Assembly (NCBI GenBank): GCA_048887225.1
Contig: JBHLJY010000002.1
Coordinates: 64,001 to 128,000, forward strand
Source: Candidatus Hodarchaeota archaeon
Lineage (GTDB): Archaea; Asgardarchaeota; Lokiarchaeia; Sigyniarchaeales; SOKP01
Reading direction: 5' to 3'
Length of the DNA stretch: 64,000 nt
In this document: positions 26,643 to 49,021 of the stretch, one piece after another
How positions within the stretch are numbered: the first letter of the stretch is position 1
Layout: each line of letters begins with the position of its first letter
Program-made: the position numbers and the translations under genes
The notes under the pieces: model-generated
Seen by the model: the letters and a program-made list of their open reading frames with translations, nothing else
The model's database searches: none
Told to the model about the DNA's origin: nothing

Positions 26643-26785
26643 AAATTAGGGAAATTTATTTTATTTATAAAAATTCAAATTTTTTTTTCATTACCAAATT
26701 GAATTTCAATATAGTATTATAAAATATTGACAATTAAGTATTTAACATTTTTGTTAAAAGGTGATTTAGAAAGAAACTCAAGAAA

Positions 26786-26811
26786 TTCTCTATTTAGTTC
26801 AAGATATAAGA
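26786..26811 (+). repeat. Palindromic boundary site, copy 1
   Basis: TTCTCTATTT-AGTTCA-AGATATAAGA. Confidence 0.85.
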
Positions 26812-26860
26812 GAGAAATGAAAAAAAAGAAGAATTTGAATTATAATTTTTTAGCGTTCTT

Positions 26861-27250
26861 CTATTCTAATTGCTTATAATAAACATAAACATTGAGTATT
26901 ATTAGTACGATAATTACAATCAGACCAACCCACGCTCTTACTAAATCTGCTGGGGTCCAAGGCATATAAATAAAGGAACCAATGAGCAAAATAAGAACCA
27001 GAATGAACCATAATATACCTACCTCCCAAGCCGGTTTTAGAGTCTCCAATTCCCCTCTTTTTAAACCAATTAGAAGACCAATTATTAATACTACCATAGT
27101 ACCACCATAAACCCGTATGAGATATGGGTTATAATAGGGTGTACCTGCGGCTATAATGTCTGGTAGTACCAAGTATTGAATCGCATATATAATACCAGCA
27201 ATCATGTTGATAATTGCGACAATTTTCACTTCTTTTGAGATTTCTGTCAT
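26861..27250 (-). CDS. Family A four-TM membrane protein
   Basis: Four hydrophobic helices, P...RxYGG motif, paralogs in array. Confidence 0.85.
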   Translation of the reverse strand: MTEISKEVKIVAIINMIAGIIYAIQYLVLPDIIAAGTPYYNPYLIRVYGGTMVVLIIGLLIGLKRGELETLKPAWEVGILWFILVLILLIGSFIYMPWTPADLVRAWVGLIVIIVLIILNVYVYYKQLE

Positions 27251-27307
27251 TTAATTTCTCATCTCTTAATTTTTTATTTTTTTTTTAATCAAATTCAAAT
27301 TTTTTTT

Positions 27308-27438
27308 ATTAGATATCTCACCCATAAATTTGGATTAAGTAATAAATTGATAAATAAGTATTTAAAGATTTAACATTTTTGTAATAGGCGATTCAGAAAG
27401 AAAATCAAGAAATTATTTATTTAGTTCAAGATATAAGA
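27308..27438 (-). repeat. Cassette promoter/leader repeat plus site copy 2 (27413-27438)
   Basis: ATTAGATAT.TCACCCATAAATTTGGATTAAG...AAGTATTTAAA...AGTTCAAGATATAAGA. Confidence 0.85.
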
Positions 27439-27532
27439 TTCTCTAAGGTTACCTATTCAAAAAAGCCAAATTTCAAACGATATTAAAAAAAAATGATTTA
27501 ATATTATAGAATTAAATCTTTTAAATAATGTA

Positions 27533-27826
27533 TTACATTCCTAATATGCTCATGGAATCTTTAACTCCCATTAAAACTTCGATTTTAATTTCGAATCCTT
27601 CAATCTCGATAAATGGAGCAAAATTTTTATATATATAAAGTAATGCATCATCCCCTTTTCCTTTTTCACAGAATATAAGTTGATAATTCTTAATACCTTG
27701 TGTTCCACTCGAAGTGGTGAATATTTGCCATTTTTTAATGAAATCTGGTAAATCCATTCTTTTAAACTTTTTTGCTGCTTCCATTGCTTTATGAGAGGGA
27801 TATGTTACAGTCACCATAAAAATCAT
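27533..27826 (-). CDS. Family B ~100-aa protein (dimeric alpha+beta barrel-like pattern)
   Basis: MVTVTYP..K..E...GK.DDA...IEGF.IKIEV shared with paralogs. Confidence 0.8.
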   Translation of the reverse strand: MIFMVTVTYPSHKAMEAAKKFKRMDLPDFIKKWQIFTTSSGTQGIKNYQLIFCEKGKGDDALLYIYKNFAPFIEIEGFEIKIEVLMGVKDSMSILGM

Positions 27827-27874
27827 TCATAGATCACCCTTTTTTAATTTTTTAATATTAGATTTTTATTTTTT

Positions 27875-27998
27875 ATTAGATATTTCACCCATAAATTTGG
27901 ATTAAGTAAAAAATTGACAATTAAGTATTTAACATTTTTGTTAAAAAGCGATTTAGAAAGAAACTTAAGAAATTATCTATTTAGTTCAAGATATAAGA
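27875..27998 (-). repeat. Cassette promoter/leader repeat plus site copy 3 (27973-27998)
   Basis: Near-identical to other copies. Confidence 0.85.
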
Positions 27999-28092
27999 TT
28001 CTCTAAGTCCTAACTATTTTCAAAAAAACGAGATAGTTATTTATATTTGACTATCACAATTAGAATTAAAAATAAATTTAATTAACAAGGTT

Positions 28093-29502
28093 TTGAAGAT
28101 GTTAAAAAAAAATATAATATTTAGTCTGATACTATTTTCTACCCTCATAACAACAAGCTTGCTATGTGCTCTTGCTCCAGAAACCGCTCCAAATCTTAGC
28201 AATCAGAGCGATAATACCTTAAATGCGATATCTCGTCCAAAGTCAAGCGCAGCGAAAGTTACGGAAAAGTGGTATAATGATGACGCTCCAATTGATATAA
28301 AACAAGTTGTAATCTCTGCCGATGGGAAGTATATTGCGGCATCGTATGTATCTTCCAGGAATGTGACGCTATTTCACAGGGATAGTAATTCATCTATATG
28401 GGAATTTGAAGCGGCCGCTAATATTGATGAAATTGCAATATCATGGAATGGATCTTATATCGTCGCATGCGATGATACTAATGTCTATTTATTGAATAGT
28501 ACTGCAGAAAATCCAAAAACAACGATGTGGAATTTTACTTATATCAGTAACAGAGATTATTCTGTAGATATTTCTTTGGATGGAAGGTATATTGCAGTCG
28601 GAATTGCAGAAGATGGGATGGGTGTATATTTATTGAATAATTCCTATTCTTCTCAAAACAAAAAAGAAGTATGGCACCAAGTTTATTCTGGTCCAACGCC
28701 TCATCCAAATCATGTAACAATCTCGGGGGATGGTAACTATACTGTAATTGGGGGCAATGGTAATCCGTGGGTTGATGTATATAACGAAACAAAAATCAAT
28801 CCAAAACCAAGAGAATGGAGATATGATACGACAGCAGCGATCCAGGATGTTGAGATATCACATTCGGGAGATTATTTCATTGCAGCTAATAATGACTGGG
28901 AGGTATATTTATTTAATACGACAGATTATCTAGGAATTCCGGTGTGGAACTTCACTGAAACGGCGGGTTTCAAGGGTATGGCGATATCTGCCGATGGAAA
29001 CTATAGCGTTGTAGCGTTTGGAAAATCCGTTTATTATTTCAATAATACATTCTCTGGTGTAAATTCGCAAAAGCAGCCGCATTGGGTGTTTAACACAGAT
29101 ACTACGGTCAGAGATCTGGATATTTCGGGAGATGGCAAATATGTTGTGGTCGCAACACAGAGCATGGGTACTCTTTATCTCCTGAATGATATAAAGATAA
29201 CACCAAAAACAGAAATATGGAAGGGATATGAAGACGATAAGGTTAACGATGTTTCAATTAGTGGATTTGGAGATTATTTCGCAGCAGGAATGAACTTACC
29301 AGGTCACGATCGAATTAGCTTATTTCATCATGATATATCAATACCAAGTATACCTCCTGGACTTCTCCCGGGGGACGATGATGACGATGACGATGAAGAA
29401 GCTATAATTCCATTCGGAAATTATTATCTTCTATTTGCGCTTCTTGCTATGCTCTCTTTAATTGTAATTATGAAGCGAAAAGCAATTTTTAAAGAGTTAT
29501 AA
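28093..29502 (+). CDS. Secreted WD40-like beta-propeller protein with C-terminal anchor tail
   Basis: Signal peptide; repeats V.IS.DG.Y...W; poly-Asp, IPFGNY, TM, KRK. Confidence 0.88.
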   Translation: MKMLKKNIIFSLILFSTLITTSLLCALAPETAPNLSNQSDNTLNAISRPKSSAAKVTEKWYNDDAPIDIKQVVISADGKYIAASYVSSRNVTLFHRDSNSSIWEFEAAANIDEIAISWNGSYIVACDDTNVYLLNSTAENPKTTMWNFTYISNRDYSVDISLDGRYIAVGIAEDGMGVYLLNNSYSSQNKKEVWHQVYSGPTPHPNHVTISGDGNYTVIGGNGNPWVDVYNETKINPKPREWRYDTTAAIQDVEISHSGDYFIAANNDWEVYLFNTTDYLGIPVWNFTETAGFKGMAISADGNYSVVAFGKSVYYFNNTFSGVNSQKQPHWVFNTDTTVRDLDISGDGKYVVVATQSMGTLYLLNDIKITPKTEIWKGYEDDKVNDVSISGFGDYFAAGMNLPGHDRISLFHHDISIPSIPPGLLPGDDDDDDDEEAIIPFGNYYLLFALLAMLSLIVIMKRKAIFKEL

Positions 29503-29684
29503 TATTACTTTTTTTCTTTTTATTTAGTTTGTGATTTATTATTAAAACTAAAAAATTAGATAGAAGGGTAAAAATAGTCTTAAAGAACAAAATGTAACAA
29601 TATCAATTACATATAATTATTATTGTATAGAGTAAAAATTATAATTATTTTTTTATCCTGAATATAATGAGAATTTTTTAGAGT

Positions 29685-30089
29685 TTACTTATTTTTTTGT
29701 TTTGAATTTGAAGGTCCTAAAGTGGTAGATGCAACTGTTGTATTATTTTGTAAATTTCTTATATAATCTGGCACTTGATAATTCTTAAATCTCTTTAAGG
29801 TATCATTGATATCATCTAACTTCCACAATAAATTCCGTTCAAATTCATTTAATTTCTCTACAAGGCTATTTTTATCATTACCAATTAGATTTTCGGCAGA
29901 TCTTTTCCAGGATTCTTTCTCTAAGATTTTTTTTAGTTTCTCAGTATTTCTTTTTTCTTTTGGTTTTTGTAAATGCTTTCTAATTCTATATTTCTTAATT
30001 CCATCAAAAAGATATTTGATACCTGCGATTGAAATTATAATTGTAAATATTAAACCAATAATTTCAAAAATTAATTGAATTTGGTCCAT
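29685..30089 (-). CDS. Hypothetical single-TM protein
   Basis: N-terminal TM followed by basic/helical region. Confidence 0.6.
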   Translation of the reverse strand: MDQIQLIFEIIGLIFTIIISIAGIKYLFDGIKKYRIRKHLQKPKEKRNTEKLKKILEKESWKRSAENLIGNDKNSLVEKLNEFERNLLWKLDDINDTLKRFKNYQVPDYIRNLQNNTTVASTTLGPSNSKQKNK

Positions 30090-30287
30090 ATTATTTATAT
30101 TCTTTTTTAATTATTTTAAAGTCAATAGGATTCAGGTTTACTAATTTTTTCTATGTAATAGTCATTTAACTCGTTGTTTGTTAAGCTCTTAGCTTCAAAT
30201 TAGAATTTAATAACATTTTTATAATTAGTATCTTAGATTTAAGAATATACTATTAAAAAGTTTTGATAAAAATTTGGAGTTGATTCT

Positions 30288-30539
30288 GTGGGAGGATTTA
30301 TGGTATTTAATTTGACTAAGAGGAAATTGATTTCTATGGTTTTTGCATTCGGTGTTGTAATTGTTATTTGGATTATCTTATATTTTATGGGTTGTAGTAT
30401 TGGTACTAATATGATTAATCCAGCGACATTCATTGATGCTCTAATAAGTTTTATTATTCTCTTAGTGATTTATATCGTTGTTTATTGTTTCTTTTATTAC
30501 GTGATTTTTAGGAAAGTAGAGAAAACCGCTGTTGTGTAA
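30288..30539 (+). CDS. Small two-TM membrane protein (likely start 30300)
   Basis: GGAGG upstream of ATG; two hydrophobic helices. Confidence 0.65.
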   Translation: MGGFMVFNLTKRKLISMVFAFGVVIVIWIILYFMGCSIGTNMINPATFIDALISFIILLVIYIVVYCFFYYVIFRKVEKTAVV

Positions 30540-30675
30540 GCGAAAGTTTTATTAATATTTTATTTAATTTTTTTTCTTTTTATTATTCTTTGGATAAAAA
30601 GTAGATTATTATATCAATAAAACCAAGAGTCAGGCATCTGTATCTTAAAGATCTTTTTTTGAAAATGATACTAAA

Positions 30676-30701
30676 TTATCTATTTAGTTCAAGATATAAG
30701 A
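30676..30701 (+). repeat. Palindromic boundary site, copy 4 (between convergent genes)
   Basis: TTATCTATTT-AGTTCA-AGATATAAGA; left flank unrelated to other copies. Confidence 0.85.
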
Positions 30702-30767
30702 GAGAAATGAAAAAAAAGAAGAATTTAAAATTATTATTCAAATTAGGATTTTATATTTTAGTGTTTA

Positions 30768-31094
30768 TTAAAACTCTGGAGCCTTCATCCCCAGCATTCC
30801 CATGGCTTCTACTACACTATACCAAACTTCTATTTTATATTTAAATCCTTCGATGTCATGGTACATCACCATGGATTCCTGAAGACGTACCATAAATTCG
30901 TCCATTTTTCCTGGTTTCGGTTCTGTTATTCCCATGGTTGTAATACCATCTTCTTTTGATCTTATGGCGCCCTGAAATATTTGTTTTTCTAGAGTTTTAT
31001 CGACCGGATATTTTTTCACAACTTCAAGATATATTTTTGCAACCTCTCTAGATTTATTAGCTGGAAAGGTTGACGTTACCATTACATAAGGCAT
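30768..31094 (-). CDS. Family B ~100-aa protein
   Basis: MPYVMVTSTFPANKSREV...KPGKMDE...IEGFKYKIEV; GAGGTGG RBS. Confidence 0.85.
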   Translation of the reverse strand: MPYVMVTSTFPANKSREVAKIYLEVVKKYPVDKTLEKQIFQGAIRSKEDGITTMGITEPKPGKMDEFMVRLQESMVMYHDIEGFKYKIEVWYSVVEAMGMLGMKAPEF

Positions 31095-31134
31095 GTTATC
31101 CACCTCTAATTTTTATTTTATTTTTAATTGGATT

Positions 31135-31260
31135 ATTAGATATTTCAACCATAAATTTATGGATTAAGAAAAAAATTGACAATTAAGTATTTAACATTTT
31201 TGTTAAAAGGTGATTTAGAATAAAAATCAAGAAATTATCTATTTAGTTCAAGATATAAGA
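31135..31260 (-). repeat. Cassette promoter/leader repeat plus site copy 5 (31235-31260)
   Basis: Near-identical to other copies. Confidence 0.85.
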
Positions 31261-31312
31261 TAGAAATGAGAAAAAAAAAATTGAATTAAGTTTTTTAGAT
31301 TTTTTTTCTACT

Positions 31313-31708
31313 CTACTTTCCCTCTTGCAAGTAGAAATAGATATCAACAATGATTAGCACTATAACTACTACATTATCAAACCATTGGCTTGCTAGATTG
31401 ACTGCTGAACGGGGTACACTGATCGTCATTATTAAATTTATTATAAGCACTATTATGAGCCATACGATCGCAAATTCCCAAAATATTTTTGAACTCTCCC
31501 ATTCTGCTCTCATTATCATAATCACGGCAAAGATTCCAAGAGCTATAGCAGTTCCCCCAAAAATCCGCCACATATGTGGATCAAAATGAGGCGAATCATT
31601 TAAAGTAGCAATAATCTCTGGAATAACCAAATACATAAATCCATATATAAAAGCTGCGATTACATTGATTATTATAACAATTTTCATATTTTTTGATATT
31701 TCTGCCAT
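31313..31708 (-). CDS. Family A four-TM membrane protein
   Basis: MAEISK...FDPHMWRIFGG; paralog of 26861..27250. Confidence 0.85.
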   Translation of the reverse strand: MAEISKNMKIVIIINVIAAFIYGFMYLVIPEIIATLNDSPHFDPHMWRIFGGTAIALGIFAVIMIMRAEWESSKIFWEFAIVWLIIVLIINLIMTISVPRSAVNLASQWFDNVVVIVLIIVDIYFYLQEGK

Positions 31709-31756
31709 TGAATTTATCATCTCTTATCTTTTTATATATATCAGATCTATTTTTTT

Positions 31757-31890
31757 ATTAGATATTTCACCCCATAAAGTTATGGAGTAAGTAATAAATT
31801 GACAAATTAGTATTTAAATATTCTACATTTTTGTAATAGGCAATTTAGAAAGAAAATCAAGAAATTATGGATTTAGTTCAAGATATAAGA
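31757..31890 (-). repeat. Cassette promoter/leader repeat plus site copy 6 (31865-31890)
   Basis: Near-identical to other copies. Confidence 0.85.
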
Positions 31891-31949
31891 TAGAAATGAA
31901 AAAAAAGAAGAATTTAAAATTTTAAACTTTTCATACGAAGATATTGCTA

Positions 31950-32270
31950 TTAAGGTGCTTTTAGTCCTACGAAAGGCATGGCTTCAGCTAAATCATAAGC
32001 AATATTCATTTGAAATTGATATCCTTCGACGGATTGCGATATCATTAGTGGACGATTAACTGCAAGAGTCATTGCTTCTTGGACCTTTCCTGGTTTAGCA
32101 GAATCAATAACAATACTATGCATACCATCCTTAACTGACCATACAGCTGCGGGAACAATGACTTTACTGATAGTTTTATCGTTAGGGAAGTTTTTCATAG
32201 CATTAAGATATATTTTTCCAACCTCCTCTGATTTACCAGCAGGCCACCAAGCTTCTATTATTATATACAT
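31950..32270 (-). CDS. Family B ~100-aa protein
   Basis: WWPAGKSEEVGK...KPGKVQEA...VEGYQFQ. Confidence 0.85.
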   Translation of the reverse strand: MYIIIEAWWPAGKSEEVGKIYLNAMKNFPNDKTISKVIVPAAVWSVKDGMHSIVIDSAKPGKVQEAMTLAVNRPLMISQSVEGYQFQMNIAYDLAEAMPFVGLKAP

Positions 32271-32315
32271 ATTTTTTACCTCTAATTTTTATTTTTTAAT
32301 TGGATTCAATTTTTT

Positions 32316-32437
32316 ATTAGATATTTCACCCATAAATTTGGATTAAGTAAAAAATTGACAAAAAAGTATTTAAATGTTTTACATTTTTGTAATGGGCGAT
32401 TTGGAAAGAAAATCAAGAAATTATCCATTTAGTTCAA
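32316..32437 (-). repeat. Cassette promoter/leader repeat plus degenerate site copy 7 (right arm deleted)
   Basis: TTATCCATTT-AGTTCA then ATAGAAATG; GATATAAGA is missing. Confidence 0.8.
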
Positions 32438-32484
32438 TAGAAATGAATAAAAAAAATATTGTGAAATTAAAACTAAAATCAGTT

Positions 32485-33579
32485 TTACACATTTATTAGT
32501 CTTGGTGGCGGGACAAATACATTTCTAAGACCTGTTCTGTTTAACGTCATTGATTCTTCGGGGCAGTGGTGGGCACAAATGCCGCATCCAATACATCTAT
32601 CTTCATTTACAATGGCAACAGTATCTTCTAAATCAATTGCTTCCATTGGACATTTTTCAACACATGTGCCGCACCCTACGCAAGTTTCTTCATTCACTTT
32701 TGCTAAATAGGAAGTTAATGTGTTCATTGCCGCTAATCCGCGATGATACAATTCTAAAGTACCACAGCAACATTTACAGCAACTGCAAATAGCATTTTCG
32801 TTGTATTCGGGATCGTCAGGAAGATGAAATGCAGTGTGAACGAGTCCAAGGTTCTCAGATTCTTTGAGAGTATTTAACGCATCTTCTTTCGAGATCGGCT
32901 TAATAAACTCGTGTTCTATTAGGAATCTAGCATATTTACCAAATATTAAGCAATTTTCTCTTGGGGCATCTAATTTACAAGGATCTGCAATGAGATCCTG
33001 TTTATGTCTGCAATAGCAAGTTCCAACACCGAAAGTATCATATTTTTCTAAAATTTTAGTTATTTCTTCGTATGGTAACACAATTTGTTGCTGAATATCA
33101 ACCTGTTCCTCGACGGGAACAATGCGTGTACCAGGTGGAGCGCTCTTAAATTGGGGTATGAATGTATCATAATTACTTTGAACCAGTTGCTTTAATTCGT
33201 CAAATAATTTCTCATATAAATTTGCTAACTTCTTTTCTTTTTCACTCGTTCCACCGCGCATTAATGTATACTCGAATATACCCGGTACGAAGGGATTAAG
33301 ATTATAAACCATGATACCTGTGTCTTCATCGGGAAAACTAGAAATTACTCCCTCATAACTTAAATCCTTTAGCATTTTTTCTAATTCATTTTCATCCAAG
33401 TCTGTTTTTTGTTTTATTCGATCAATGATAAGCGATGGTTTCTTAAATATCTGAAGAAATTTTGCTTGTTCCTCGGTTATAATAGTTTGCAATATCTCAA
33501 TAAGAGTGTTGCTAACAGGTAATACTATTCCTGCCTTTCCAATTAGTTGTATAAGTCTAGACCATATTTTTTCGGACAT
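32485..33579 (-). CDS. 4Fe-4S dicluster protein with N-terminal HTH-like region
   Basis: CYCR, CSCCKCCCG, CVGCGTCVEKCP, CIGCGICAHHCP. Confidence 0.88.
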   Translation of the reverse strand: MSEKIWSRLIQLIGKAGIVLPVSNTLIEILQTIITEEQAKFLQIFKKPSLIIDRIKQKTDLDENELEKMLKDLSYEGVISSFPDEDTGIMVYNLNPFVPGIFEYTLMRGGTSEKEKKLANLYEKLFDELKQLVQSNYDTFIPQFKSAPPGTRIVPVEEQVDIQQQIVLPYEEITKILEKYDTFGVGTCYCRHKQDLIADPCKLDAPRENCLIFGKYARFLIEHEFIKPISKEDALNTLKESENLGLVHTAFHLPDDPEYNENAICSCCKCCCGTLELYHRGLAAMNTLTSYLAKVNEETCVGCGTCVEKCPMEAIDLEDTVAIVNEDRCIGCGICAHHCPEESMTLNRTGLRNVFVPPPRLINV

Positions 33580-33695
33580 GATTATCTTACTTTTATTTAT
33601 TTTCAGCTTTGAATTTCTTATAATAAATTTGAAGTATGATTAATAATCAGTTATTTCAATTAAAATATTTTACATTTATGTGATTTCATTATTTA

Positions 33696-33721
33696 TCTTA
33701 TATCTTAGAACAAATATATGA
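33696..33721 (-). repeat. Palindromic boundary site, copy 8 (inverted, GTTCTA spacer class)
   Basis: TCTTATATCT-TAGAAC-AAATATATGA. Confidence 0.8.
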
Positions 33722-35160: not shown

Positions 35161-35165
35161 GAAAT

Positions 35166-39003: not shown

Positions 39004-39036
39004 ATTAAATCATATATCTGTTCTAAGATATAAGAT
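39004..39036 (+). repeat. Site copy 9 (39010-39035); left arm of a 33-bp perfect inverted repeat
   Basis: ATTAAATCATATATCTGTTCTAAGATATAAGAT. Confidence 0.9.
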
Positions 39037-39088
39037 AGAAAAGAAAAAAAAGAAGAATTTAAAATTTAAAATATCTCTTTATGTACTT

Positions 39089-39481
39089 TTATTTTCGCTT
39101 TTGTATCCAAATATGAATTCCTAATATTGTAAAGAAAACATTTATAATTACGCTTAATAAAAAAGCACCTATTGGGATATTATAAAGAACAAGACCGATA
39201 ATATTATTGATTATGCTGAAAATTTGCGCTATTATGCCAAATAAGACCCAGCTCTCGATCTTGTCCCAGTTATCTAAGTCCTTATACAGCGTTATTACAA
39301 CTATTGCCCAAGTTAAATATAGACCTCCTACCCCTCTAGTAGATTGTGGATCCCAGAAAGGCCAATTAAATGCTGCACCCGAAGATTCAGGAGATATAAA
39401 CCACCATAAGCCAAAAATAATCAATACAATTATACCTGCAATCCAAAATATTTTAAGCTCTTTTTCAACATCTAATGCCAT
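39089..39481 (-). CDS. Family A four-TM membrane protein
   Basis: MALDV.KELKI...DP..TRGVGG...LDNW.KIE.W...QKRK. Confidence 0.88.
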   Translation of the reverse strand: MALDVEKELKIFWIAGIIVLIIFGLWWFISPESSGAAFNWPFWDPQSTRGVGGLYLTWAIVVITLYKDLDNWDKIESWVLFGIIAQIFSIINNIIGLVLYNIPIGAFLLSVIINVFFTILGIHIWIQKRK

Positions 39482-39534
39482 TGTTTTCCCTCCAATTATT
39501 TCTTTTTATTGAATTTTTTGATTTTCTTTTTTTT

Positions 39535-39620
39535 ATTAGATATTCCACCCATAAATTTATGGATTAAGTAAAGAATTGACAAATGAGTATTTAAAGATTT
39601 AACTTCTTTGTAATAAACGA
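39535..39620 (-). promoter_or_regulatory. Cassette promoter/leader repeat
   Basis: TTTAAATA box on the minus strand, CCATAAATTTATGG palindrome. Confidence 0.75.
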
Positions 39621-39628: not shown

Positions 39629-39661
39629 ATCTTATATCTTAGAACAGATATATGATTTAAT
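39629..39661 (-). repeat. Site copy 10 (39630-39655, inverted); right arm of the 33-bp inverted repeat
   Basis: Exact reverse complement of 39004-39036. Confidence 0.9.
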
Positions 39662-39719: not shown

Positions 39720-39762
39720 AAAAGAAACTCAAGAAATTATTTATTTAGTTCAAGATATATGA
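39720..39762 (+). repeat. Site copy 11 (39737-39762) with short left flank
   Basis: TTATTTATTT-AGTTCA-AGATATATGA. Confidence 0.8.
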
Positions 39763-39821: not shown

Positions 39822-40550
39822 CTAATTTCTTTCAATTTTCTCAAATCCTTTTTTAATTTTAATAATTAGTGTCTTTTCAAAATACTCTCCCTCTATTAAG
39901 ATCTTAAAGGGGAAATCTTCTGATTTAAAGAATTCGGTAAAATATTTTAACCAATAAATACTATAGCGTCTATTTTGATGATGTTTAAAAGTTAGTAAAA
40001 ATTGATCAGTGTTAACATATTCGATATCAATTTTGTAAAAGTAATTAGCTATTACCCAGACTTTTTTGATGGACTTTAGTATCTCTTCTATTTCTAAGTC
40101 TTTAATTTGTTTTTTATTATACCATATGATTAAATCAAAAGCTTCATTTTTCTGGATAGGTCGATTTAATTCATCCTCAGGAGCTTCCGCAGCAGCAATT
40201 AATTGATTAAAATCAGTTTTTCCAATTAGCATCATTTGCATCTCGCTTCGAGCGTTACACCACCATCTAAGTTTAGATTTTTTCTTTTTCTTTGACAATT
40301 TATAATAAAATTTGACAGATTCCTCAAATAATTTAAATTGATTCTCAAATTCAGGCAAAAGTTTTTCGATTATATTATGTGTTTTTAAATCCATAGAAAG
40401 ATATTGAGAATAGAGTTCAATAGCTTTTTCGATTATAGTATTCATTTTACAATTTTGCTGATCCTTTAGCGTGTCGATTAAATTCCTTATTTCACTTCTT
40501 ACATTAACATATACAGATTTAGAAGGTTCGGATAGAGTTTTTTTAGCCAT
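39822..40550 (-). CDS. Hypothetical protein with possible N-terminal ribbon-helix-helix motif
   Basis: KSVYVNV...LIDTLK...MNTIIEKAIELY. Confidence 0.6.
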   Translation of the reverse strand: MAKKTLSEPSKSVYVNVRSEIRNLIDTLKDQQNCKMNTIIEKAIELYSQYLSMDLKTHNIIEKLLPEFENQFKLFEESVKFYYKLSKKKKKSKLRWWCNARSEMQMMLIGKTDFNQLIAAAEAPEDELNRPIQKNEAFDLIIWYNKKQIKDLEIEEILKSIKKVWVIANYFYKIDIEYVNTDQFLLTFKHHQNRRYSIYWLKYFTEFFKSEDFPFKILIEGEYFEKTLIIKIKKGFEKIERN

Positions 40551-40749
40551 TATTATTAGCACCAAAAAATTTTATTTATCTATATAAATAATGGATATTT
40601 ATATATATATATACATGCTTTTTTTATAATATATATTGATTATTTGATTATCATATATATCGAAAGATTTAAATATGCTATTATATATCTATATATCAAA
40701 AATCTAAAAAAAATATTGTAAATAAAAAATAATGGGGTTAATATAAATT

Positions 40750-41185: not shown

Positions 41186-41581
41186 TCATTTTTCTTTGCG
41201 CTTTTGTATTAAAATATGAATGCCTAATGCAGCGAAGAAAATAGCTATAATTAAATTTATTATGCCAATTGGGTTAGTAGTGTAAAAAATGATGCTAATA
41301 ATAAATGAAATTAATCCCAGAATATTTACTATTACTGAAAAAATTATCCAATTCTCAACCTTCTCCCAGTTATCAAGTTCCCTTAACACTTTTAATGCAA
41401 TTAATGCCCAAGCTATGAAAACTCCTCCTAAATATCTACCTGCAGCTGGATCAAATAAAGGCCAATTATGCACCGCAACCCAAGACTCATAAGAAATAAA
41501 GAGCCATAAGCCATAATAGATAAGTACTATAAAACCCAAAATAAAATTAATTTTAAGCTCTTTTTTAACATCTAATGCCAT
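41186..41581 (-). CDS. Family A four-TM membrane protein
   Basis: MALDV start by comparison with paralogs; FDPAAGRYLGG. Confidence 0.88.
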   Translation of the reverse strand: MALDVKKELKINFILGFIVLIYYGLWLFISYESWVAVHNWPLFDPAAGRYLGGVFIAWALIALKVLRELDNWEKVENWIIFSVIVNILGLISFIISIIFYTTNPIGIINLIIAIFFAALGIHILIQKRKEK

Positions 41582-41635
41582 TATTTTCCCTACAATTATA
41601 TTTTTTTTATTGAATTTTTTGAATTTTATTTTTTT

Positions 41636-41768
41636 ATTAGATATTTCACCCATAAATTTATGGAGTAAGTAATAAATTGACAAATAAGTATTTAAAGCTT
41701 TAACATTTTTGTAATAGGCGATTTAGAAACAAAATCAAAAAATCATATATTTAGTTCAAGATATAAAA
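41636..41768 (-). repeat. Cassette promoter/leader repeat plus site copy 12 (41743-41768)
   Basis: TCATATATTT-AGTTCA-AGATATAAAA. Confidence 0.85.
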
Positions 41769-41930: not shown

Positions 41931-43088
41931 CTAAAAATCTATTGGCCTCCCCTCATAAGCATATTCGAATATTTTTCGAAAATCTTCTTCTGAGGGACTT
42001 CTTGGATTAATGATTTTTGTGAAATCTGCATCTGCAAATGATACTAATTTTTCAATGTTTCGTTCCCATTCTTTTTTAGATATCCCAAAATCTTTTATGG
42101 TAATAGGAACATTAACTTTTTTTAAGAAATCTCGAACAAAATTAGCCAATGTTTTTGTAGCATCGTCATTAATTAATACATTTATATTATTCAAAATATT
42201 TTCATATTTTTTTTCACTTGTAGGTTTGTTAAATTCAATAATATAAGGCAACATTATGCTTACTGAGATACCATGTGGAATGTGATAAACAGCACCTATA
42301 GAATGACCACACGCGTGAGCAATAGCACAAACAGAATGACCAAGAGCTAATCCAGCAATAGAAGCGGCATAATGTACCTTCGCACGTATATTAATATCAT
42401 TTGCACCTTCTCCAACAGCAAGAGGTAAATAATTGATTATCAATTTAATTGCATGCAAATTCAAGGCATCAGTAAAATCTGAAGCTATATTACTATAAAT
42501 TCCTTCAATAGCATGCGTCAATGCATCCAAACCAGTTGAAGCGGTAAGTTTTGGTGGCATTTTTAGAGGCAACTTTGGATCAATGATTATCATTTCAGGA
42601 ACTAACTCTATAGAAGCAATTGCACCTTTTCTATTAGTTTCGCTGTCTGTGACTCCCGCTCCACCTGTACTTTCTGCTCCCGTACCAGACGTAGTTGGTA
42701 TTAATATTAATTTAGATTTTTGCCCTAATTTAGGGACTGTTCCTAAAATACATTCATGTAGTTTTTTATCTTCACATTCATAAAGAAAATATATCCCTTT
42801 TGCCGCATCCATTACAGAACCGCCCCCAAATCCGATAATTAAATCTGGTTTATATTCACGTGCAACCTCACCACCTTTGGATATAGTAATATCCATAGGA
42901 TCTGGTTCAATCTCATCAAAAAAAATAAAATCTTTTTTACTAAGAAATTTTGAGATTAAATTTCCATGTATCTCATTAATAACTTTATCAGTAACAACCA
43001 AAACTTTATTTTGGCTCAAATTTTTTAATTCTTTTAGAGATCCTTTTCCATAATAAATAATCGGTAATTTAATCATTCTCACAGTCAT
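41931..43088 (-). CDS. Iron-containing alcohol dehydrogenase
   Basis: GGGSVMDAAK, IPTTSGTGAE, DALTHAIE, AHACGH, HIPHG. Confidence 0.93.
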   Translation of the reverse strand: MTVRMIKLPIIYYGKGSLKELKNLSQNKVLVVTDKVINEIHGNLISKFLSKKDFIFFDEIEPDPMDITISKGGEVAREYKPDLIIGFGGGSVMDAAKGIYFLYECEDKKLHECILGTVPKLGQKSKLILIPTTSGTGAESTGGAGVTDSETNRKGAIASIELVPEMIIIDPKLPLKMPPKLTASTGLDALTHAIEGIYSNIASDFTDALNLHAIKLIINYLPLAVGEGANDINIRAKVHYAASIAGLALGHSVCAIAHACGHSIGAVYHIPHGISVSIMLPYIIEFNKPTSEKKYENILNNINVLINDDATKTLANFVRDFLKKVNVPITIKDFGISKKEWERNIEKLVSFADADFTKIINPRSPSEEDFRKIFEYAYEGRPIDF

Positions 43089-43178
43089 CTTTATACTCCT
43101 GTCGTTTTTTAATTTCTTTAAATTTAATAATTTAATATGAATTTCATGACTATGAAGTAAGTATGAATAATATAAAAA

Positions 43179-43251
43179 TATTTAACTTTTTTGTTAAAGG
43201 GCGATTTAGAATAAAAATCAAGAAATTATCTGTTTAGTTCAAGATATATGA
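43179..43251 (-). repeat. Partial promoter repeat plus site copy 13 (43226-43251)
   Basis: TTTAACTTTTTTGTTAAAGGGCGATTTAGAA...AGTTCAAGATATATGA. Confidence 0.8.
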
Positions 43252-43397
43252 TCCTATACTACTTATCACATACTTTAAAAATATAATGGAAAATTAGGTT
43301 ATACCAACGACAGATAAAGTATTTTTTAGAACTAAACTTTGGGTTAATGGCTCTTTATACTTTATGATTAGGAGTCTTATTTCTTATTTTTAATAAT

Positions 43398-43610: not shown

Positions 43611-43703
43611 TTTATTTCAACTCTAAATTTATTTTTAAATTTAATCTATCTTATTTAATGTTAAAATTCTCTTTATAATATTTCCTTTAAAATTTATACT
43701 TAT

Positions 43704-45221
43704 TTAACTTTTTTCTAATATTAAGTCAGCTGCTAAACAACCTGTGTACATAGAAACGGGATAACCTCCTAAAAATGGCTCTAAAACCGAATATATCCCC
43801 ACCATTAATAAATTTTGTATTGGGGTCTCAATGAGCAATTTTGTTGTTACTCTTATTTTTTTCATATCTCGAGACCACCCTGCAACAGAACCATTATATC
43901 TTTGACCCCAATCTCTATAAGTTAAGGGTGTCGCAATTTCAATTTTTTGAATCGAGGATGAAAGTCCGGGTAATATTTGCTCGACAACTTTTATAAGTTT
44001 TTCTGCTAAAGCATTTTTATATTCTTTATACCCCTCTTTTCTCATTTTTTCTCCAATTCTCCATTTTTCAAAATGTTTATAGGGCATAGTAACCCTTATA
44101 ACTAAGCTTTTCATTCCCTCTGGGGCGAAATTCGGCGATTTATTCGACCATAGACAAATCTCAATCTCTTTATTTTCAAAATCATCGAGGTCATCATCTT
44201 CAGATTTTGCGATTTTTGCTCGATAAAATAAATGGTCTGCTCTCATTCGACTAAAATCAATCTTATCGGAGTCCACACCTAAATAAACACAAAACTCAGA
44301 ACCAGTATAGGCTGTATTTTTAATAATATCAAGGTATGATTTAGCAATCATATTTGGATCAATTAAATCTAAGTATACCTTTTTATAATCAGCATTTGCA
44401 ACGATCCAATGCGCTCTGAAAAATTTTCCTTCTTCAGTTTCTACACCGATGGCTCTACTATTTTCAATTATTATCTTTATTACAGGTGAGTTCAACTTTA
44501 TTTCGCCATTATTTTTCTGAATATATTCACTAAGTAATTCGTTAATCCCATGTATCCCGCAAGAAGGAAACCAGATGCCTTCAATAGACATAATATTCCA
44601 CATAAATGCAAGATGCACCATATTCATAATGGGCTCAAAGGTACCTTGACTCCCCAATAATCTTTTTAAAGAATCATTCTCTAGATACTTTTCTAATAAA
44701 ATTTTTGATGATTTTTCTTTATACCTTTCATATAATTCATACTCCTCTCTATGTATTTTCAATAGCAATTCTTCTGCTAATTCACGCTTTTTACCTATCA
44801 AATATTCTGGATGCCATTTATTTACTTGACTTATCACTTTCAATAATTTGTCAAACTCTAAAAAGAATTTTTCAATACCAATCCGATCTTCTAGATATAA
44901 TTCTTTTAATGCTTCTTTAAAATTATTCCACTCTTGAGAATATATTATATCAATTTTAGGAGTTATTAATTGAAAATTACTTCTTTGAAATGAAATATTT
45001 TGATTAATCCCTATATCATCTAATATTTCTTTTACCAAATTAGGAAAGCTAAATGACAAAGGACCCATTGGAAAATAAAAATTTCCCCTTCTAAATATGT
45101 GACTCGTGCCTCCTATATGATGAATTTTCTCTAAAATTAAAACTTTCTTACCTTTTGATGCTAATTTTGCCGCGCATGTTAGCCCCCCAACACCCGCTCC
45201 GATAATTATTACATCATACAT
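43704..45221 (-). CDS. Phytoene-dehydrogenase-like FAD oxidoreductase
   Basis: GAGVGGL...EK...GG, ATPLTY, G..AGW, GGYP...TG. Confidence 0.88.
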   Translation of the reverse strand: MYDVIIIGAGVGGLTCAAKLASKGKKVLILEKIHHIGGTSHIFRRGNFYFPMGPLSFSFPNLVKEILDDIGINQNISFQRSNFQLITPKIDIIYSQEWNNFKEALKELYLEDRIGIEKFFLEFDKLLKVISQVNKWHPEYLIGKKRELAEELLLKIHREEYELYERYKEKSSKILLEKYLENDSLKRLLGSQGTFEPIMNMVHLAFMWNIMSIEGIWFPSCGIHGINELLSEYIQKNNGEIKLNSPVIKIIIENSRAIGVETEEGKFFRAHWIVANADYKKVYLDLIDPNMIAKSYLDIIKNTAYTGSEFCVYLGVDSDKIDFSRMRADHLFYRAKIAKSEDDDLDDFENKEIEICLWSNKSPNFAPEGMKSLVIRVTMPYKHFEKWRIGEKMRKEGYKEYKNALAEKLIKVVEQILPGLSSSIQKIEIATPLTYRDWGQRYNGSVAGWSRDMKKIRVTTKLLIETPIQNLLMVGIYSVLEPFLGGYPVSMYTGCLAADLILEKS

Positions 45222-45227
45222 AGATTT

Positions 45228-45359
45228 TAGATAAATTCACCCATAAATTTATGGATTAAGTAAAGAAGGGAGAAATTAGTATTTAAAGATTTAACTTTTT
45301 GGTAATAGGCGATTTAGAATAAAAATCAAGAAATCATATATTTAGTTCAGGATATAAGA
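45228..45359 (-). repeat. Cassette promoter/leader repeat plus site copy 14 (45334-45359)
   Basis: TCATATATTT-AGTTCA-GGATATAAGA. Confidence 0.85.
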
Positions 45360-45413
45360 GAGAAATGAAAAAAAAAGAAGAATTTAAAATTTAAAATATT
45401 TCCTTATTTAGTT

Positions 45414-45809
45414 TTATTTGCGCTTTTGTATTATAATATGAATACCTAGTATAGCGAAAAAGAGATTCACAATCATAGCTATTATGGTACCAGCAGAAAA
45501 TACATTATACATAATAATGCCAATAAGTTCAGCGATGAAAATTAAAATTTGTGCCATTACAGCAAATAACACCCATTCCTCAATCTTCTCCCAGTTATCA
45601 AGTTTCTTTAATAATCTTATTACAATTATCGCCCAAGATATAAAAACTGCTCCTACAACTCTAGCAGTAACTGGAGCAAAATAGCCTGCAGTACCTAATA
45701 TTGCATAATAAGATTCATAAGAAATAAAAAACCACAAGCCGTAAATGAGCAATACTATTAGACCTGCAATCCAAAATATTTTAAGTTCTTTATCAACATC
45801 TAATGCCAT
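45414..45809 (-). CDS. Family A four-TM membrane protein
   Basis: Near-duplicate of 48494..48889. Confidence 0.9.
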   Translation of the reverse strand: MALDVDKELKIFWIAGLIVLLIYGLWFFISYESYYAILGTAGYFAPVTARVVGAVFISWAIIVIRLLKKLDNWEKIEEWVLFAVMAQILIFIAELIGIIMYNVFSAGTIIAMIVNLFFAILGIHIIIQKRK

Positions 45810-45865
45810 CGTTTTCCCTCCAATTAATTTTTTTTATTGAGATTTTTAAATTTCTATTTTTTATG

Positions 45866-45997
45866 TTAGACATTTCACACATAGATTTAAGGATAATTTA
45901 AAATATTGATAAATAAGTATTTAAAGATTTAACTTTTTTGTAATGGGCGATTTAGAAAGAAAATCAAGAAATTATCTATTTAGTTCAAAATATAGGA
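45866..45997 (-). repeat. Diverged promoter/leader repeat plus site copy 15 (45972-45997)
   Basis: TTATCTATTT-AGTTCA-AAATATAGGA. Confidence 0.8.
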
Positions 45998-46021
45998 TTT
46001 TTTAATACTTAAAATTTAAAT

Positions 46022-48376
46022 ATGTTTTACAAAGTTAAATTCTTATATAAGAAATATACATATGACGAGTTTTTAACAAAATTGAAAAGTTCGAAAAAAG
46101 CAATCTTTGTAGCTATAGCATTCTTATTTAGTGGTTTGATTGTTTTTCTATTTACTCCTACTGAACGACGAGTACTTCACGATCAAAATTCGGAAATCAA
46201 GATTGAAGAAGAAATAGCTAGAGATGCAGGATCAGGAACCATTTACTATGTCGATAGCATCAACGGGGATGACTCTAATCCCGGAACTTCTGGTACTCCA
46301 TGGAAAACAATACGTAAAGTCAATTCAATGACGTTCAAGCCAGGAGATTCAATATTATTCAAAAGGGGCGGAAGTTGGAGAGAGTATTTAGATCCTCAGA
46401 ATGGTAATAGCACGGATAAAATCACATACGGAACGTACGGAACGGGTCCTAAACCAAAATTTATTGGCGCTTTATTAAGAAATGAGACGATTGACTGGTT
46501 CGATATGGGCGGGAACATTTGGTCTACGAATAGTTCAAAAGAGGTTGGTTCTCAATTACTTTCGAATCCCAGCTTCGAATCCGGCACTTCAGGGTGGGTT
46601 TTCTACAATCACACAGATACTAGAGCAGAGGGTTACCAAGATACTATTCGATATGATTCTGGAAGTGCGAGTTATGGTATAAACTGTACAACAAGAAGCA
46701 TTTATCCTTATGATATCTCATTTAGAGCAACAGATATAATAGTAATACAAGGATGTCTTTACAATTTCTCATTTCGAGCGAAATGTACGCAACCATTTAA
46801 CATTAGCGCCATTGATATAATGAATTATACTGGTTCTGATACTATTAGATTAACTTCTCACACCACTAATCAAACTCCTACGATTACAACAACATGGAAA
46901 ACGTATCACGTTCTATTTAGGGTAGATAAATCATGCACTACAGGGTGGATAATATTTGCTCTTGGAGATGTTTTGCCTGAGGGGTCCATATTTAATATTG
47001 ATACATGTTCCTTCAAGATGCTTCAAAATGACACTCTGTTTTATGCTGATATCGGGAATCTAATTTTTAACAATGAGCAGGAGTGTGGTCTAAAAGTGTG
47101 GAATGCGACGGATTTAGATTCTCAGGGCGAATTCTGGTTTGATGAGGATAATTGGTTTGTAAAGATGTATTCAGTTGATAATCCAGCGTCGGTTTATTCA
47201 GATGGAATAGAAGTTTGCATGGGACGCCACATTATTGATGAAGAGGGGAAGCATGACATTATTTATGAGAATTTGCATTTGATGTACGGTGGTGCTCATG
47301 GAATTGGTGGAGGGAACACATACAATATCACAATACGATACTGTGATTTCTCTTATATTGGGGGAAGTGAACTGCCAAGCACTCTTTACAACAATATTCG
47401 ATTTGGAAATGCAATCGAATTTTGGTCAAATGCTAGCGATAATTTAGTAGAACATTGTAAGATATGGGAAATCTATGATGCGGGGATAACCAATCAAGGG
47501 ACCTACAGTGGCAATAAGCAATATAATCTTATATACAATAATAATACAATCTGGAATTGTGAGATGTCGTTCGAAATTTGGAATAACCCCGCTAATTCTA
47601 TTATGCATAATATTTATATCGAGAATAATACCTGTTATGACGCTGGTTCTGGATGGGGCAATAGCCAGCGATATGATCCTAAAGGTACTCATTTATATCT
47701 TGGATGGAATACGGCAAATACCATAGATATATTTATCCGGAATAACATTTTTTACGAGGTAAATATGTCCTGTCTATATATCCACAATGAAACGTGGTCT
47801 CAATATGCTTTAGGCAACCTCACTTTAGATTATAATATGTATTATTCTACAGCCGCAAATTATATGATTTATTATCAGAATGATTTGTATTTATATGATG
47901 ATTTCTCACAATATCAAGCTGACACTGGGAAAGATGCTCATTCGTATGCTGGACCACTGCCAAAAGTTAAGAACCTGGAAATAACTCCGAGTAATGTTTA
48001 TGTAGGGAATAAGGTTACTATTCAATTCGAAGTTGATGATATTATTGGTCTTAAAAACGTGTCTATTGAGATTTTTGGAAAAAATCACACATTAAAAGCA
48101 TATTCTGGTGTGTATAACTATTCTTGGACTGCTAATAATAGTGGAACTGTCAATTATAAGATACATATGGAAGATTTGACGGGTTATAATAATTCGATGA
48201 GCCGATCTATATCGGTAAATATCTATATCCCGCCAAGCGGCGATGATGATGATAATGACGATGATGATGAAGAAGCAATAATTCCATTCGGAAATTATTA
48301 TCTGCTATTTGCGGTTCTTGCTATGCTCTCTTTAATTGTAATTATAAAGCGAAAAGCAATTTTTAAAGAGTTATAA
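46022..48376 (+). CDS. Secreted right-handed beta-helix protein with CBM4/9-like domain and C-terminal anchor tail (start possibly TTG 46082)
   Basis: YYVDSINGDDSNPGTS..PWKT, PGDSILFKRG, LLSNPSFE, Asn-ladder repeats, IPFGNY-TM-KRK. Confidence 0.85.
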   Translation: MFYKVKFLYKKYTYDEFLTKLKSSKKAIFVAIAFLFSGLIVFLFTPTERRVLHDQNSEIKIEEEIARDAGSGTIYYVDSINGDDSNPGTSGTPWKTIRKVNSMTFKPGDSILFKRGGSWREYLDPQNGNSTDKITYGTYGTGPKPKFIGALLRNETIDWFDMGGNIWSTNSSKEVGSQLLSNPSFESGTSGWVFYNHTDTRAEGYQDTIRYDSGSASYGINCTTRSIYPYDISFRATDIIVIQGCLYNFSFRAKCTQPFNISAIDIMNYTGSDTIRLTSHTTNQTPTITTTWKTYHVLFRVDKSCTTGWIIFALGDVLPEGSIFNIDTCSFKMLQNDTLFYADIGNLIFNNEQECGLKVWNATDLDSQGEFWFDEDNWFVKMYSVDNPASVYSDGIEVCMGRHIIDEEGKHDIIYENLHLMYGGAHGIGGGNTYNITIRYCDFSYIGGSELPSTLYNNIRFGNAIEFWSNASDNLVEHCKIWEIYDAGITNQGTYSGNKQYNLIYNNNTIWNCEMSFEIWNNPANSIMHNIYIENNTCYDAGSGWGNSQRYDPKGTHLYLGWNTANTIDIFIRNNIFYEVNMSCLYIHNETWSQYALGNLTLDYNMYYSTAANYMIYYQNDLYLYDDFSQYQADTGKDAHSYAGPLPKVKNLEITPSNVYVGNKVTIQFEVDDIIGLKNVSIEIFGKNHTLKAYSGVYNYSWTANNSGTVNYKIHMEDLTGYNNSMSRSISVNIYIPPSGDDDDNDDDDEEAIIPFGNYYLLFAVLAMLSLIVIIKRKAIFKEL

Positions 48377-48415
48377 TACTTTTTTTTCTTTTTCTTAATT
48401 CAGTCTAAAATTGAA

Positions 48416-48441
48416 TCATATATTTAGTTCAAGATATAAGA
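48416..48441 (+). repeat. Site copy 16 (between convergent genes)
   Basis: TCATATATTT-AGTTCA-AGATATAAGA. Confidence 0.88.
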
Positions 48442-48493
48442 GAGAAATGAAAAAAAAGAAGAATTTAAAATTAAAATATTTCCTTATTTAGTT

Positions 48494-48889
48494 TTATTTG
48501 CGCTTTTGTATTATAATATGAATACCTACTATAGCGAAAAAGATATTAATAATTATAACTATTATGGTACCAGCAGTTAATAAATTATACACAACAATGC
48601 CAATAATTTCAGCGATTAAAACTAAAATTTGTGACATTACAGCAAATAACACCCACTCCTCAATCTTCTCCCAGTTATCAAGTTTCTTTAATAATCTTAT
48701 TACAATTATCGCCCAAGATATAAAAACTGCTCCTACAACTCTAGCAGTAACTGGAGCAAAATAGCCTGCAACACCTAATAATGCGTGATAAGACTCATAA
48801 GAAATAAAAAACCACAAACCGTAAACGAGCAATACTATTAGACCTGCAATCCAAAATATTTTAAGTTCTTTATTAACATCTAATGCCAT
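48494..48889 (-). CDS. Family A four-TM membrane protein
   Basis: Near-duplicate of 45414..45809. Confidence 0.9.
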   Translation of the reverse strand: MALDVNKELKIFWIAGLIVLLVYGLWFFISYESYHALLGVAGYFAPVTARVVGAVFISWAIIVIRLLKKLDNWEKIEEWVLFAVMSQILVLIAEIIGIVVYNLLTAGTIIVIIINIFFAIVGIHIIIQKRK

Positions 48890-48942
48890 TATTTTCACTC
48901 CAAATATATTTTTTTATTGAATTTTTTAATTTTCTTTCTTTT

Positions 48943-49021
48943 ATTAGATATTTCACCCATAAATTTATGGATTAAGTAAAGAATTGACAAATAAGTATTT
49001 AAAGATTTAACTTTTTTGTAA
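48943..49021 (-). promoter_or_regulatory. Last cassette promoter/leader repeat (no site follows)
   Basis: CCATAAATTTATGG at 48957-48970; TTTAAATA (minus strand) at 48996-49003. Confidence 0.8.

Follow-up and report, generated by a model that had tools for sequence, protein, structure and literature searches.

A recurrent two-armed palindromic site bordering gene units with predicted promoters in a Lokiarchaeia genome, and its possible part in cassette exchange

The DNA examined in this study is a 64,000-nucleotide (nt) stretch (C2:64001-128000, hereafter the window; contig JBHLJY010000002.1 of GenBank assembly GCA_048887225.1) of a Loki-type archaeal genome that comprises 3.27 Mb in 49 contigs and is 98% complete (G000), and the element in question is a short palindromic site that recurs between the genes of two arrays. 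A search of the window with the pattern TYATMTATYT-N6-AGATATAAGA, allowing up to three mismatches, returned 23 strand matches against 0.63 expected from dinucleotide-preserving shuffles, and none of 100 shuffles reached 23. A first-pass annotation had listed 16 copies, and pattern search and flank alignment revealed the motif at all 16 positions; two of these (33696 and 39630) are inverted when searched by strand, as had been stated, while the claim that the site occurs nowhere else in the window holds save for one two-mismatch match at 3923, which is devoid of the common flanks. The unit order that it had described (site, T-run, minus-strand gene, leader, TATA-like box, site) was confirmed by flank alignment and array maps, and the site brackets mostly single-gene units, each with its own predicted promoter and terminator. 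Judging from sequence, we tentatively read these units as a cassette system that resembles integrons or dif modules and is driven by site-specific recombination, this being the best reading although one in which we place less than even confidence.

The site has two inverted, imperfectly matching arms of 10 bp that are separated by an asymmetric spacer of 6 bp (10-6-10), amounting to 26-28 bp in total and extendable to approximately 11-6-11 by means of a conserved flanking A and T, and it thus has the two-arms-plus-6-bp-spacer layout of Xer/dif modules. Its edges are sharp, with conservation among 54 genomic copies falling off beyond positions -1 to 27. Conservation differs between the arms, the right one being nearly invariant (AGATATAAGA in 37 of the 54 copies) and the left one variable, while the spacer is conserved to the same extent as the arms and falls mainly into the classes AGTTCA (n = 32) and GTTCTA (n = 14). 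A third spacer class, ATCGAA, was observed with unchanged arms in a metagenome contig (L075:744-790; TCTTATATCT-TTCGAT-AGATATATGA). The spacer and right arm were never found in the genome outside complete sites, and half-sites are not enriched, for which reason a half-site or transposon-end model was discarded. Single-strand folding of the site and its flanks is no better than that of shuffles (z-scores of -1.7 to +0.9), which lends no support to hairpin models and fits a duplex protein-binding site. A scan of the window between 26 and 50 kb against Rfam, at E-values of up to 0.1, matched no family.

One and the same core joins differing recurrent flanks (named PL, R1, R2 and R4, and a T-run plus CTTAGATTGAA) as well as unique flanks, and the exchange of flanks at the site that had been proposed is consequently seen as swapping around a discrete 26-28 bp unit. 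Profiles of the four named blocks, searched against the genome, retrieved 25 copies of PL, 8 strong copies of R1, 13 of R2 and 4 of R4, thereby establishing the two alternative right flanks of the first-pass annotation (R1 and R2) as genuine recurrent modules. Its common left flank likewise corresponds to a conserved upstream block, but one of approximately 115 bp rather than approximately 25 bp: an alignment of copies of this block, PL, shows conservation reaching far past the 26-bp site. Reading from the site on the minus strand, PL comprises approximately 45 conserved bases, a TATA-like TTTAAATAC and a conserved leader that contains a small hairpin (CCATAAATTTATGG) along with a short ATGGGTGAAATATCTAATAAAAAA resembling an upstream open reading frame (uORF), and it is followed by a variable stretch rich in A, a GGAGG of Shine-Dalgarno type and the start codon. 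The uORF-like frame (MGEISNKK..., for example at 27301-27345 of the window) varies in length and is in frame with the main gene in the open reading frame (ORF) at 41186-41683. On the opposite side of the site lies R1, GAGAAATGAAAAAAAAGAAGAATTT, a T-run 3' of the preceding minus-strand gene, while R2 is a 43-bp box that starts with TTCTCTAAG, is conserved over 43-45 bp and is attached to the right arm. PL is always located on the left arm and R2 and R4 on the right arm; PL is predicted to act as a promoter and leader and R1 as a terminator. At an odd junction on contig C6 (C6:94718-94812), position 18 of PL is joined straight to the right arm and R2, which looks like a rearrangement scar within the module.

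In the window (positions are followed by the strand; blocks were located by profile, and the PL copies starting at 27301, 27866, 31133, 31750, 45227 and 45856 also by alignment), the leftmost site (26786-26811, +; spacer AGTTCA) has on its left a truncated PL (26720-26784, -; model positions 2-73) with no gene behind it and on its right an R1 (26812-26841, +), which in the minus-strand reading is the T-run terminator of the gene to its right, encoding a 129-aa membrane protein (26861-27250, -; family A, cluster F16, no Pfam match). The PL of this gene (27301-27411, -) abuts the next site (27413-27438, +), whose right arm carries an R2 box (27439-27483, +) and which is followed by a gene for a 97-aa soluble protein (27533-27826, -; family B, cluster F1, no Pfam match) and a further PL (27866-27971, -). 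The site at 27973-27998 (+) lies between divergent units, with this PL to its left and an R2-like flank to its right toward the gene for a 469-aa WD40/beta-propeller protein (28093-29502, +). The array-terminal site at 30676-30701 (+) has a non-module left flank, an 83-bp segment of which also occurs on contig C23, and an R1 on its right (30702-30732, +), next to a gene for a 111-aa family-B protein (30768-31103, -) with its PL (31133-31233, -). The same arrangement recurs at the site at 31235-31260 (+; PL left, R1-like flank right), with a gene for a 135-aa F16 membrane protein (31313-31720, -) and PL (31750-31864, -), and at that at 31865-31890 (+; PL left), with an R1 (31892-31921, +), a gene for a 106-aa family-B protein (31950-32270, -) and PL (32307-32420, -). 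The adjoining copy (32421-32446, +) is indeed damaged as had been claimed, in that the left arm and spacer are intact and the right arm has been lost, leaving the spacer directly joined to an R1-like terminator flank; next to it lies a gene for a 364-aa protein with two C-terminal 4Fe-4S motifs (32485-33579, -). The right end of this first array is an inverted site (33696-33721, -; spacer GTTCTA) with non-module flanks.

The second array starts on the left with a site (39010-39035, +; spacer GTTCTA) located within one arm (39004-39036) of a perfect 33-bp inverted repeat, the other arm of which (39629-39661) contains an inverted site (39630-39655, -; spacer GTTCTA). The repeat encloses one complete, invertible-looking unit composed of an R1 (39037-39067, +), a gene for a 130-aa membrane protein (39089-39481, -; family A, cluster F3) and a PL without positions 1-21 (39526-39620, -; model positions 22-116), and its right copy together with approximately 100 bp interrupts this otherwise normal PL between positions 21 and 22. 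The first approximately 22 nt of PL are found on the left of the next site (39737-39762, +), which has a TTCTCTAAG flank on its right and is followed by genes for a 247-aa protein without a Pfam match (39822-40565, -) and for an F3 membrane protein (41186-41683, -). The ORF listed for the latter extends into the leader of its PL (41628-41741, -), and the true start is likely the MALDV motif at residue 35. The site at 41743-41768 (+; PL left, TTCTCTAAG flank right) precedes a gene for an iron-containing alcohol dehydrogenase (41931-43088, -), upstream of which PL is truncated (43176-43224, -; model positions 2-49), and the site adjoining this remnant (43226-43251, +) has a unique right flank. 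There follow a gene for a FAD-dependent amine-oxidase-like oxidoreductase (43704-45221, -), a PL that ends 5 nt before its ATG (45227-45332, -), a site (45334-45359, +) with this PL on the left and an R1 on the right (45360-45392, +), a gene for a 131-aa F3 membrane protein (45414-45809, -) and a PL (45856-45971, -). The site at 45972-45997 (+), between divergent units, has the latter PL on its left, and 25 bp to its right begins the plus-strand gene for a 784-aa protein with a CBM_4_9 domain (46022-48376, +). This gene lies to the left of a site between convergent genes (48416-48441, +), and to the right of that site are an R1 (48442-48472, +) and a family-A gene (48494-48898, -; 134-aa F3 membrane protein), behind which the array ends in a broken PL that retains positions 29-112 only and lacks positions 1-28 and the site (48938-49021, -). 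The sites at 30676, 39010 and 48416 do lie between convergent ORFs as had been noted, although at 30676 and 39010 the ORF on the left is short and doubtful. Outside the arrays, an acetyl-CoA-synthetase-like gene is divided over two ORFs, an AMP-binding N-terminal part (24603-25820) and a C-terminal domain (25929-26642), separated by approximately 108 nt, which may reflect a tRNA-type intron or a frameshift.

A profile search of the whole genome revealed approximately 54 good copies of the site, all of them intergenic and grouped in approximately 12 islands on 11 contigs, with several copies at contig ends; the earlier notion of a single chromosomal platform in the window does not survive this distribution, while the clustering that was to be looked for proved to be strong. 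There are 36 pairs of adjacent sites within 6 kb, of which 30 are in the same orientation, and in 21 of the 36 the inter-site segment contains exactly one gene. The usual geometry is a stop codon, approximately 55 bp, the site, 140-165 bp and the next start codon; nine of the 54 copies lie between convergent genes, where they serve no promoter and yet match the consensus. According to the array maps, most arrays possess n+1 sites for n units. At the starts of these arrays the order is non-module flank, site and terminator (30676, 39010 and 48416 in the window, and C4:52738, C6:96628, C7:117411 and C28:16809), while at their ends it is PL, site and another flank (27973 and 45972, and C4:113222, C7:119883, C6:97244 and C28:17383). 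This anatomy fits the pattern expected from the tandem integration of circles with a PL-site-terminator junction into a bare site.

The PL-driven units are dominated by two small paralogous families, namely approximately 130-aa four-helix membrane proteins (family A) and approximately 100-aa soluble proteins (family B), neither of which has a Pfam match and whose nearest clusters are uncharacterised, mostly Asgard proteins. Other site-flanked genes encode the 4Fe-4S protein, iron alcohol dehydrogenase, FAD oxidoreductase, CBM-domain and beta-propeller proteins mentioned above and, with the other islands included, NosD/beta-helix surface proteins, a clostripain-type peptidase, PAS histidine kinases, MFS transporters, an alpha/beta hydrolase and an MscS channel; the cargo is therefore accessory and heterogeneous, and not a coherent regulon. 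The 469-aa beta-propeller and 784-aa CBM proteins share a 35-residue C-terminal tail that is 94% identical (29398-29502 and 48272-48376) and is probably an anchor or sorting module. Among 17 full copies of the site plus PL, mean identity is 88.9% (range 81-95%), and this value hardly depends on cargo (89.7% for related and 88.7% for unrelated cargo) or on location (88.2% within the same island and 89.0% between different islands). The cargo proteins are on average 34% identical within one family and are otherwise unrelated. Since the modules are approximately 89% identical as compared to 34% for the cargo, they must have propagated after the cargo genes had diverged, and local gene conversion is disfavoured because module similarity is independent of location.

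The site (with at most one mismatch) is present in six of nine other species of the genus, at 1-4 copies each as opposed to 46 in G000, mostly with unique flanks and heterogeneous neighbours; in the other sampled genera of the family and order it was not found, with the exception of a single one-mismatch match in another family that is probably due to chance. Among approximately 185,000 species representatives it is confined to this genus, apart from approximately 15 single matches in AT-rich bacteria. In three relatives (G009, G006 and G005) the membrane family forms tandem arrays whose terminators and promoters are homologous but which do not contain the site. Metagenome contigs yielded 48 matches, approximately 18 of which come from relatives; in several of these contigs, as in some genomes of relatives, a flank or a whole unit is held in common and the sequences diverge at the site. 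On one contig (L059) a whole unit (site, PL, 113-aa gene, terminator and site) matches C6:102632-103220 at approximately 95% identity, with unrelated DNA beyond either site; at its right-hand site the proximal arm is shared and the spacer and distal arm differ, homology stopping between arm and spacer. On another (L054) identity to C6 is 97% over the left flank and the site, with divergence 2 nt beyond the right arm. Elsewhere a site stands between two stretches of DNA whose counterparts in G000 (92% and 96% identical) are loci lacking the site (L080), or the site plus 9 nt replaces a longer upstream block of G000 (L079), and in G006 the remnant of a glyA-like gene (approximately 80 C-terminal codons) has its start precisely where the site ends on its outer side. 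In G000 itself the 83-bp terminator segment lacks a site on C23 but recurs at 30597-30679, where it adjoins the site at 30676, and a metagenomic gene resembling that on C23 bears the site (L066). The flanks of L071, L089 and L045 were rejected as breakpoint evidence, as they proved to be shared modules or to have breakpoints approximately 45 bp from the site. A further contig (L047:143-2453) has, relative to C3:203841-203848, a 2.3-kb insert with two sites, a gene for a 158-aa membrane protein and a 420-aa Cys-rich ORF in which no recombinase domain but only a weak CoiA_C match was detected; the insert is flanked by an approximately 40-bp direct duplication of the 5' end of the downstream (target) gene, the second copy of which contains an insert of approximately 41 nt relative to G000, possibly a tRNA-type intron.

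The anatomy of the arrays, the age pattern of the modules and the divergence at the site edge favour the reading as a cassette system, in which the site would be the junction of small exchangeable gene units in the accessory islands of this archaeon. Units would join arrays and be released from them through conservative site-specific recombination that acts at the site on duplex DNA: a circular unit with a PL-site-terminator junction (attP-like) would recombine with a bare site (attB-like), giving hybrid junctions at array ends and PL-site-terminator junctions between tandem units. As promoter and terminator would travel with the gene, each unit could therefore be expressed wherever it landed. 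The enzyme would be encoded elsewhere, the candidates being a XerA-like gene on C25 (C25:18132-19061) or an unrecognised protein; what we infer in this scheme is the chemistry of recombination, the circular intermediate and the identity of the enzyme. Going further, it is possible, and proposed here with more reserve than the general reading, that this is an undescribed Asgard system in which a recombinase acting in trans inserts, excises and reshuffles self-contained expression cassettes at a duplex 10-6-10 site. It is just as tentatively that we suggest such a system to have built the approximately 12 accessory islands as a functional analogue of integrons and dif modules with another type of site and another expression logic.

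A number of observations weigh against recombination at the site. No recombinase gene adjoins any array; the genome encodes three tyrosine recombinases (PF00589) and no serine recombinase. The one nearest to an array, which is at the end of C7 and separated by 5.5 kb from the array on that contig, is a member of an integrase family of integrated elements, and its relatives of 49-56% identity edge ordinary integrated elements without such sites or palindromes, while relatives of the C24 enzyme stand beside an MCM helicase and many small ORFs with no sites near; both were rejected as the site enzyme, and neither has a close homologue in the nine other species of the genus. Abutting the TATA-like box of the C7-end gene, which is itself cut by the contig end, is a unique perfect 8-7-8 palindrome (C7:125397-125419, L094:5398-5420; TAGATATA-TCTCTAT-TATATCTA) that contains the 8-mer of the site arm in inside-out orientation, a resemblance to be regarded as a lead only. 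The C24 gene (C24:182-1692) has counterparts on several Loki-type contigs (L122, L124 and L125), where an approximately 160-aa ORF is paired with a 341-aa tyrosine recombinase beside an MCM helicase, an arrangement suggestive of a family of integrated elements of plasmid or virus type. Further adverse points are that units of differing flanking spacer class are common, which is awkward for tyrosine recombinases because those enzymes need matching spacers, and that two PL-driven genes have no downstream site (C4:110392 and C1:342075). PL copies are cut at positions 21, 28, 49, 54, 66 and 73, implying that rearrangements are not confined to the site, and G002 is 94% identical to window positions 49915-52985 and then continues into a different gene, with the breakpoint inside PL. 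All cross-strain comparisons derive from short-read metagenome assemblies, in which false joins can arise at precisely such repeats, and this is the principal reservation. The assembled-read contigs (Logan) break at repeats, and the joints reported there, which have sides of 20-36 letters and stem from cross-mapping of paralogous modules, speak neither for nor against circles, deletions or inversion. Finally, the motif is dispersed genome-wide, usually beside promoter-like blocks, a distribution that makes up part of what the first-pass annotation had named as refuting its interpretation: 42 of the 54 sites adjoin at fixed distance a promoter-like block reading away from the site (PL 25, R2 13 and R4 4).

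It is on account of this dispersal that a regulatory reading is retained as the main rival, even though we consider it rather unlikely. The site would in that case be a regulatory or boundary element, i.e. an operator to which a dimeric protein binds, or else a roadblock or insulator between a terminator and the next promoter, precisely the interval in which it is located; it would have spread with a reusable promoter block, the repeats then recombining homologously or illegitimately and so shuffling the flanks, an extension we hold to be doubtful to the same degree. The lack of a linked recombinase and the breakpoints inside PL suit this explanation, and the coherent orientation of neighbouring sites can be explained by the fixed sides of PL and of R2/R4. 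A box common to PL and R2 (19 of 25 positions), arranged mirror-wise about the palindrome, recalls a divergent promoter with a central operator, although the overall alignment score does not exceed that of shuffles. However, the centre of the site lies approximately 60 bp upstream of the TATA-like box, a distance unusually large for archaeal activators and unsuited to repressors; nor does an operator account for the nine perfectly conserved copies that serve no promoter, for a spacer as conserved as the arms, for the unequal conservation of the arms or for functionally incoherent cargo. The site is furthermore not kept upstream of orthologous genes in relatives, the truncated coding sequence in G006 abuts its edge, and the location-independent similarity of the modules argues against local gene conversion.

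Two other explanations appear improbable. A non-autonomous transposable element resembling miniature inverted-repeat or repetitive extragenic palindromic elements, multiplied in this lineage and happening to carry an outward promoter and a terminator, would agree with the 46 copies here as opposed to no more than four per congeneric species, with the star-like similarity of the modules (approximately 11% pairwise divergence regardless of location), with the breakage of contigs of G000 and related assemblies at the repeats and with the site copy inserted with approximately 100 bp inside a PL block. Such an element should have consistent ends, and neither these nor target-site duplications were seen; half-sites are not enriched, the site forms no stable hairpin, flanks on its two sides vary independently as would not be expected of a fixed element, and no Y1 transposase (RAYT/IS200-type) is encoded, with zero PF01797 matches in the genome. 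We see as little likelihood in a true dif-module system, in which the sites are extra copies of chromosomal dif and units are moved by the housekeeping XerA, as proposed for the pdif sites of Acinetobacter. The 10-6-10 geometry, the XerA-like gene on C25 and the low-copy presence of the site in most species of the genus, as for the target of a conserved enzyme, are in its favour, as is the greater conservation of one arm, a trait of bacterial dif. On the other hand, single copies in relatives are not at syntenic positions, and pdif sites alternate in orientation, unlike the neighbouring sites here, most of which (30 of 36 pairs) are direct repeats. The likeness to dif that had been suggested is also weakened by the site itself, which reads TTA..N10..TAA on both strands, unlike the TAA-N6-8-TTA shared across the spacer by reported archaeal dif sites (PMC11840125), although no dif of the genus itself was identified; this divergence counts against the cassette reading as well.

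Among known prokaryotes, Asgard archaea stand closest to eukaryotes, and the turnover of their accessory gene pool is largely unknown. If the cassette reading is correct, site-bounded cassettes with built-in promoters would represent a new gene-shuffling route in archaea, and the site would be the first recombination or boundary site in Lokiarchaeia to be defined by sequence and amenable to experiment. A regulatory boundary element would still be unusual, as a standardised promoter-site-terminator punctuation of approximately 50 transcription units. PL would in addition be a strong, ready-to-use candidate when a native promoter/leader is sought for genetic tools.

Within the searchable literature on Asgard mobile elements we found nothing similar described. 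Archaeal integrons and clusters of attC sites lacking an integrase (CALINs) exist, are enriched in Asgard genomes and use attC sites (Ghaly et al. 2022, PMC9668308). Like integrons, the present arrays consist mostly of single-gene cassettes separated by a recurring imperfect palindrome, their cargo is accessory and heterogeneous and they vary between close relatives; like CALINs, many of them have no adjacent integrase. Sites of the attC type are approximately 57-141 bp long, conserved in structure and recombined as folded single strands, and integron cassettes are promoterless and expressed behind Pc. The present site, in contrast, is 26-28 bp long and conserved in sequence without single-strand folding, and the cassettes appear to have their own promoter/leader and terminator (25 PL units, others with R2 or R4 upstream), for which reasons it is not attC-like. 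The islands are moreover dispersed rather than forming one platform, and no IntI or attI was identified here, none of the three PF00589 genes being adjacent to an array and the IntI-specific extra domain not having been examined.

Bare sites with unique flanks resemble attB of phage lambda, and the hybrid junctions at array ends resemble attL and attR. The size of attP is about that of PL (115 bp), site (26 bp) and R2 or R1 (30-45 bp) combined. Lambda-type integration differs in that the present units are single genes of 0.5-4.5 kb without an integrase of their own, and no arm-type binding sites are defined. Promoter reuse and putative mobile promoters have been described in prokaryotes (PMC3575422), and here, too, a highly similar upstream region (site plus PL, 89%) precedes non-homologous genes in one genome; in this case, however, a palindromic site is attached, a common terminator block stands at the other end of the unit and the site also occurs without a promoter, so that promoter reuse covers PL but not the site. 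The closest analogue in logic is provided by the dif modules (pdif) of Acinetobacter, gene modules bounded by 28-bp, two-arm sites with a 6-bp spacer, the recombinase being encoded elsewhere and the mechanism of movement inferred (PMC6449649, PMC13141974). In both systems discrete bounded modules are found in different contexts, and the present one is set apart by sites that are mostly direct repeats, by its chromosomal and archaeal location and by its standardised promoter and terminator blocks.

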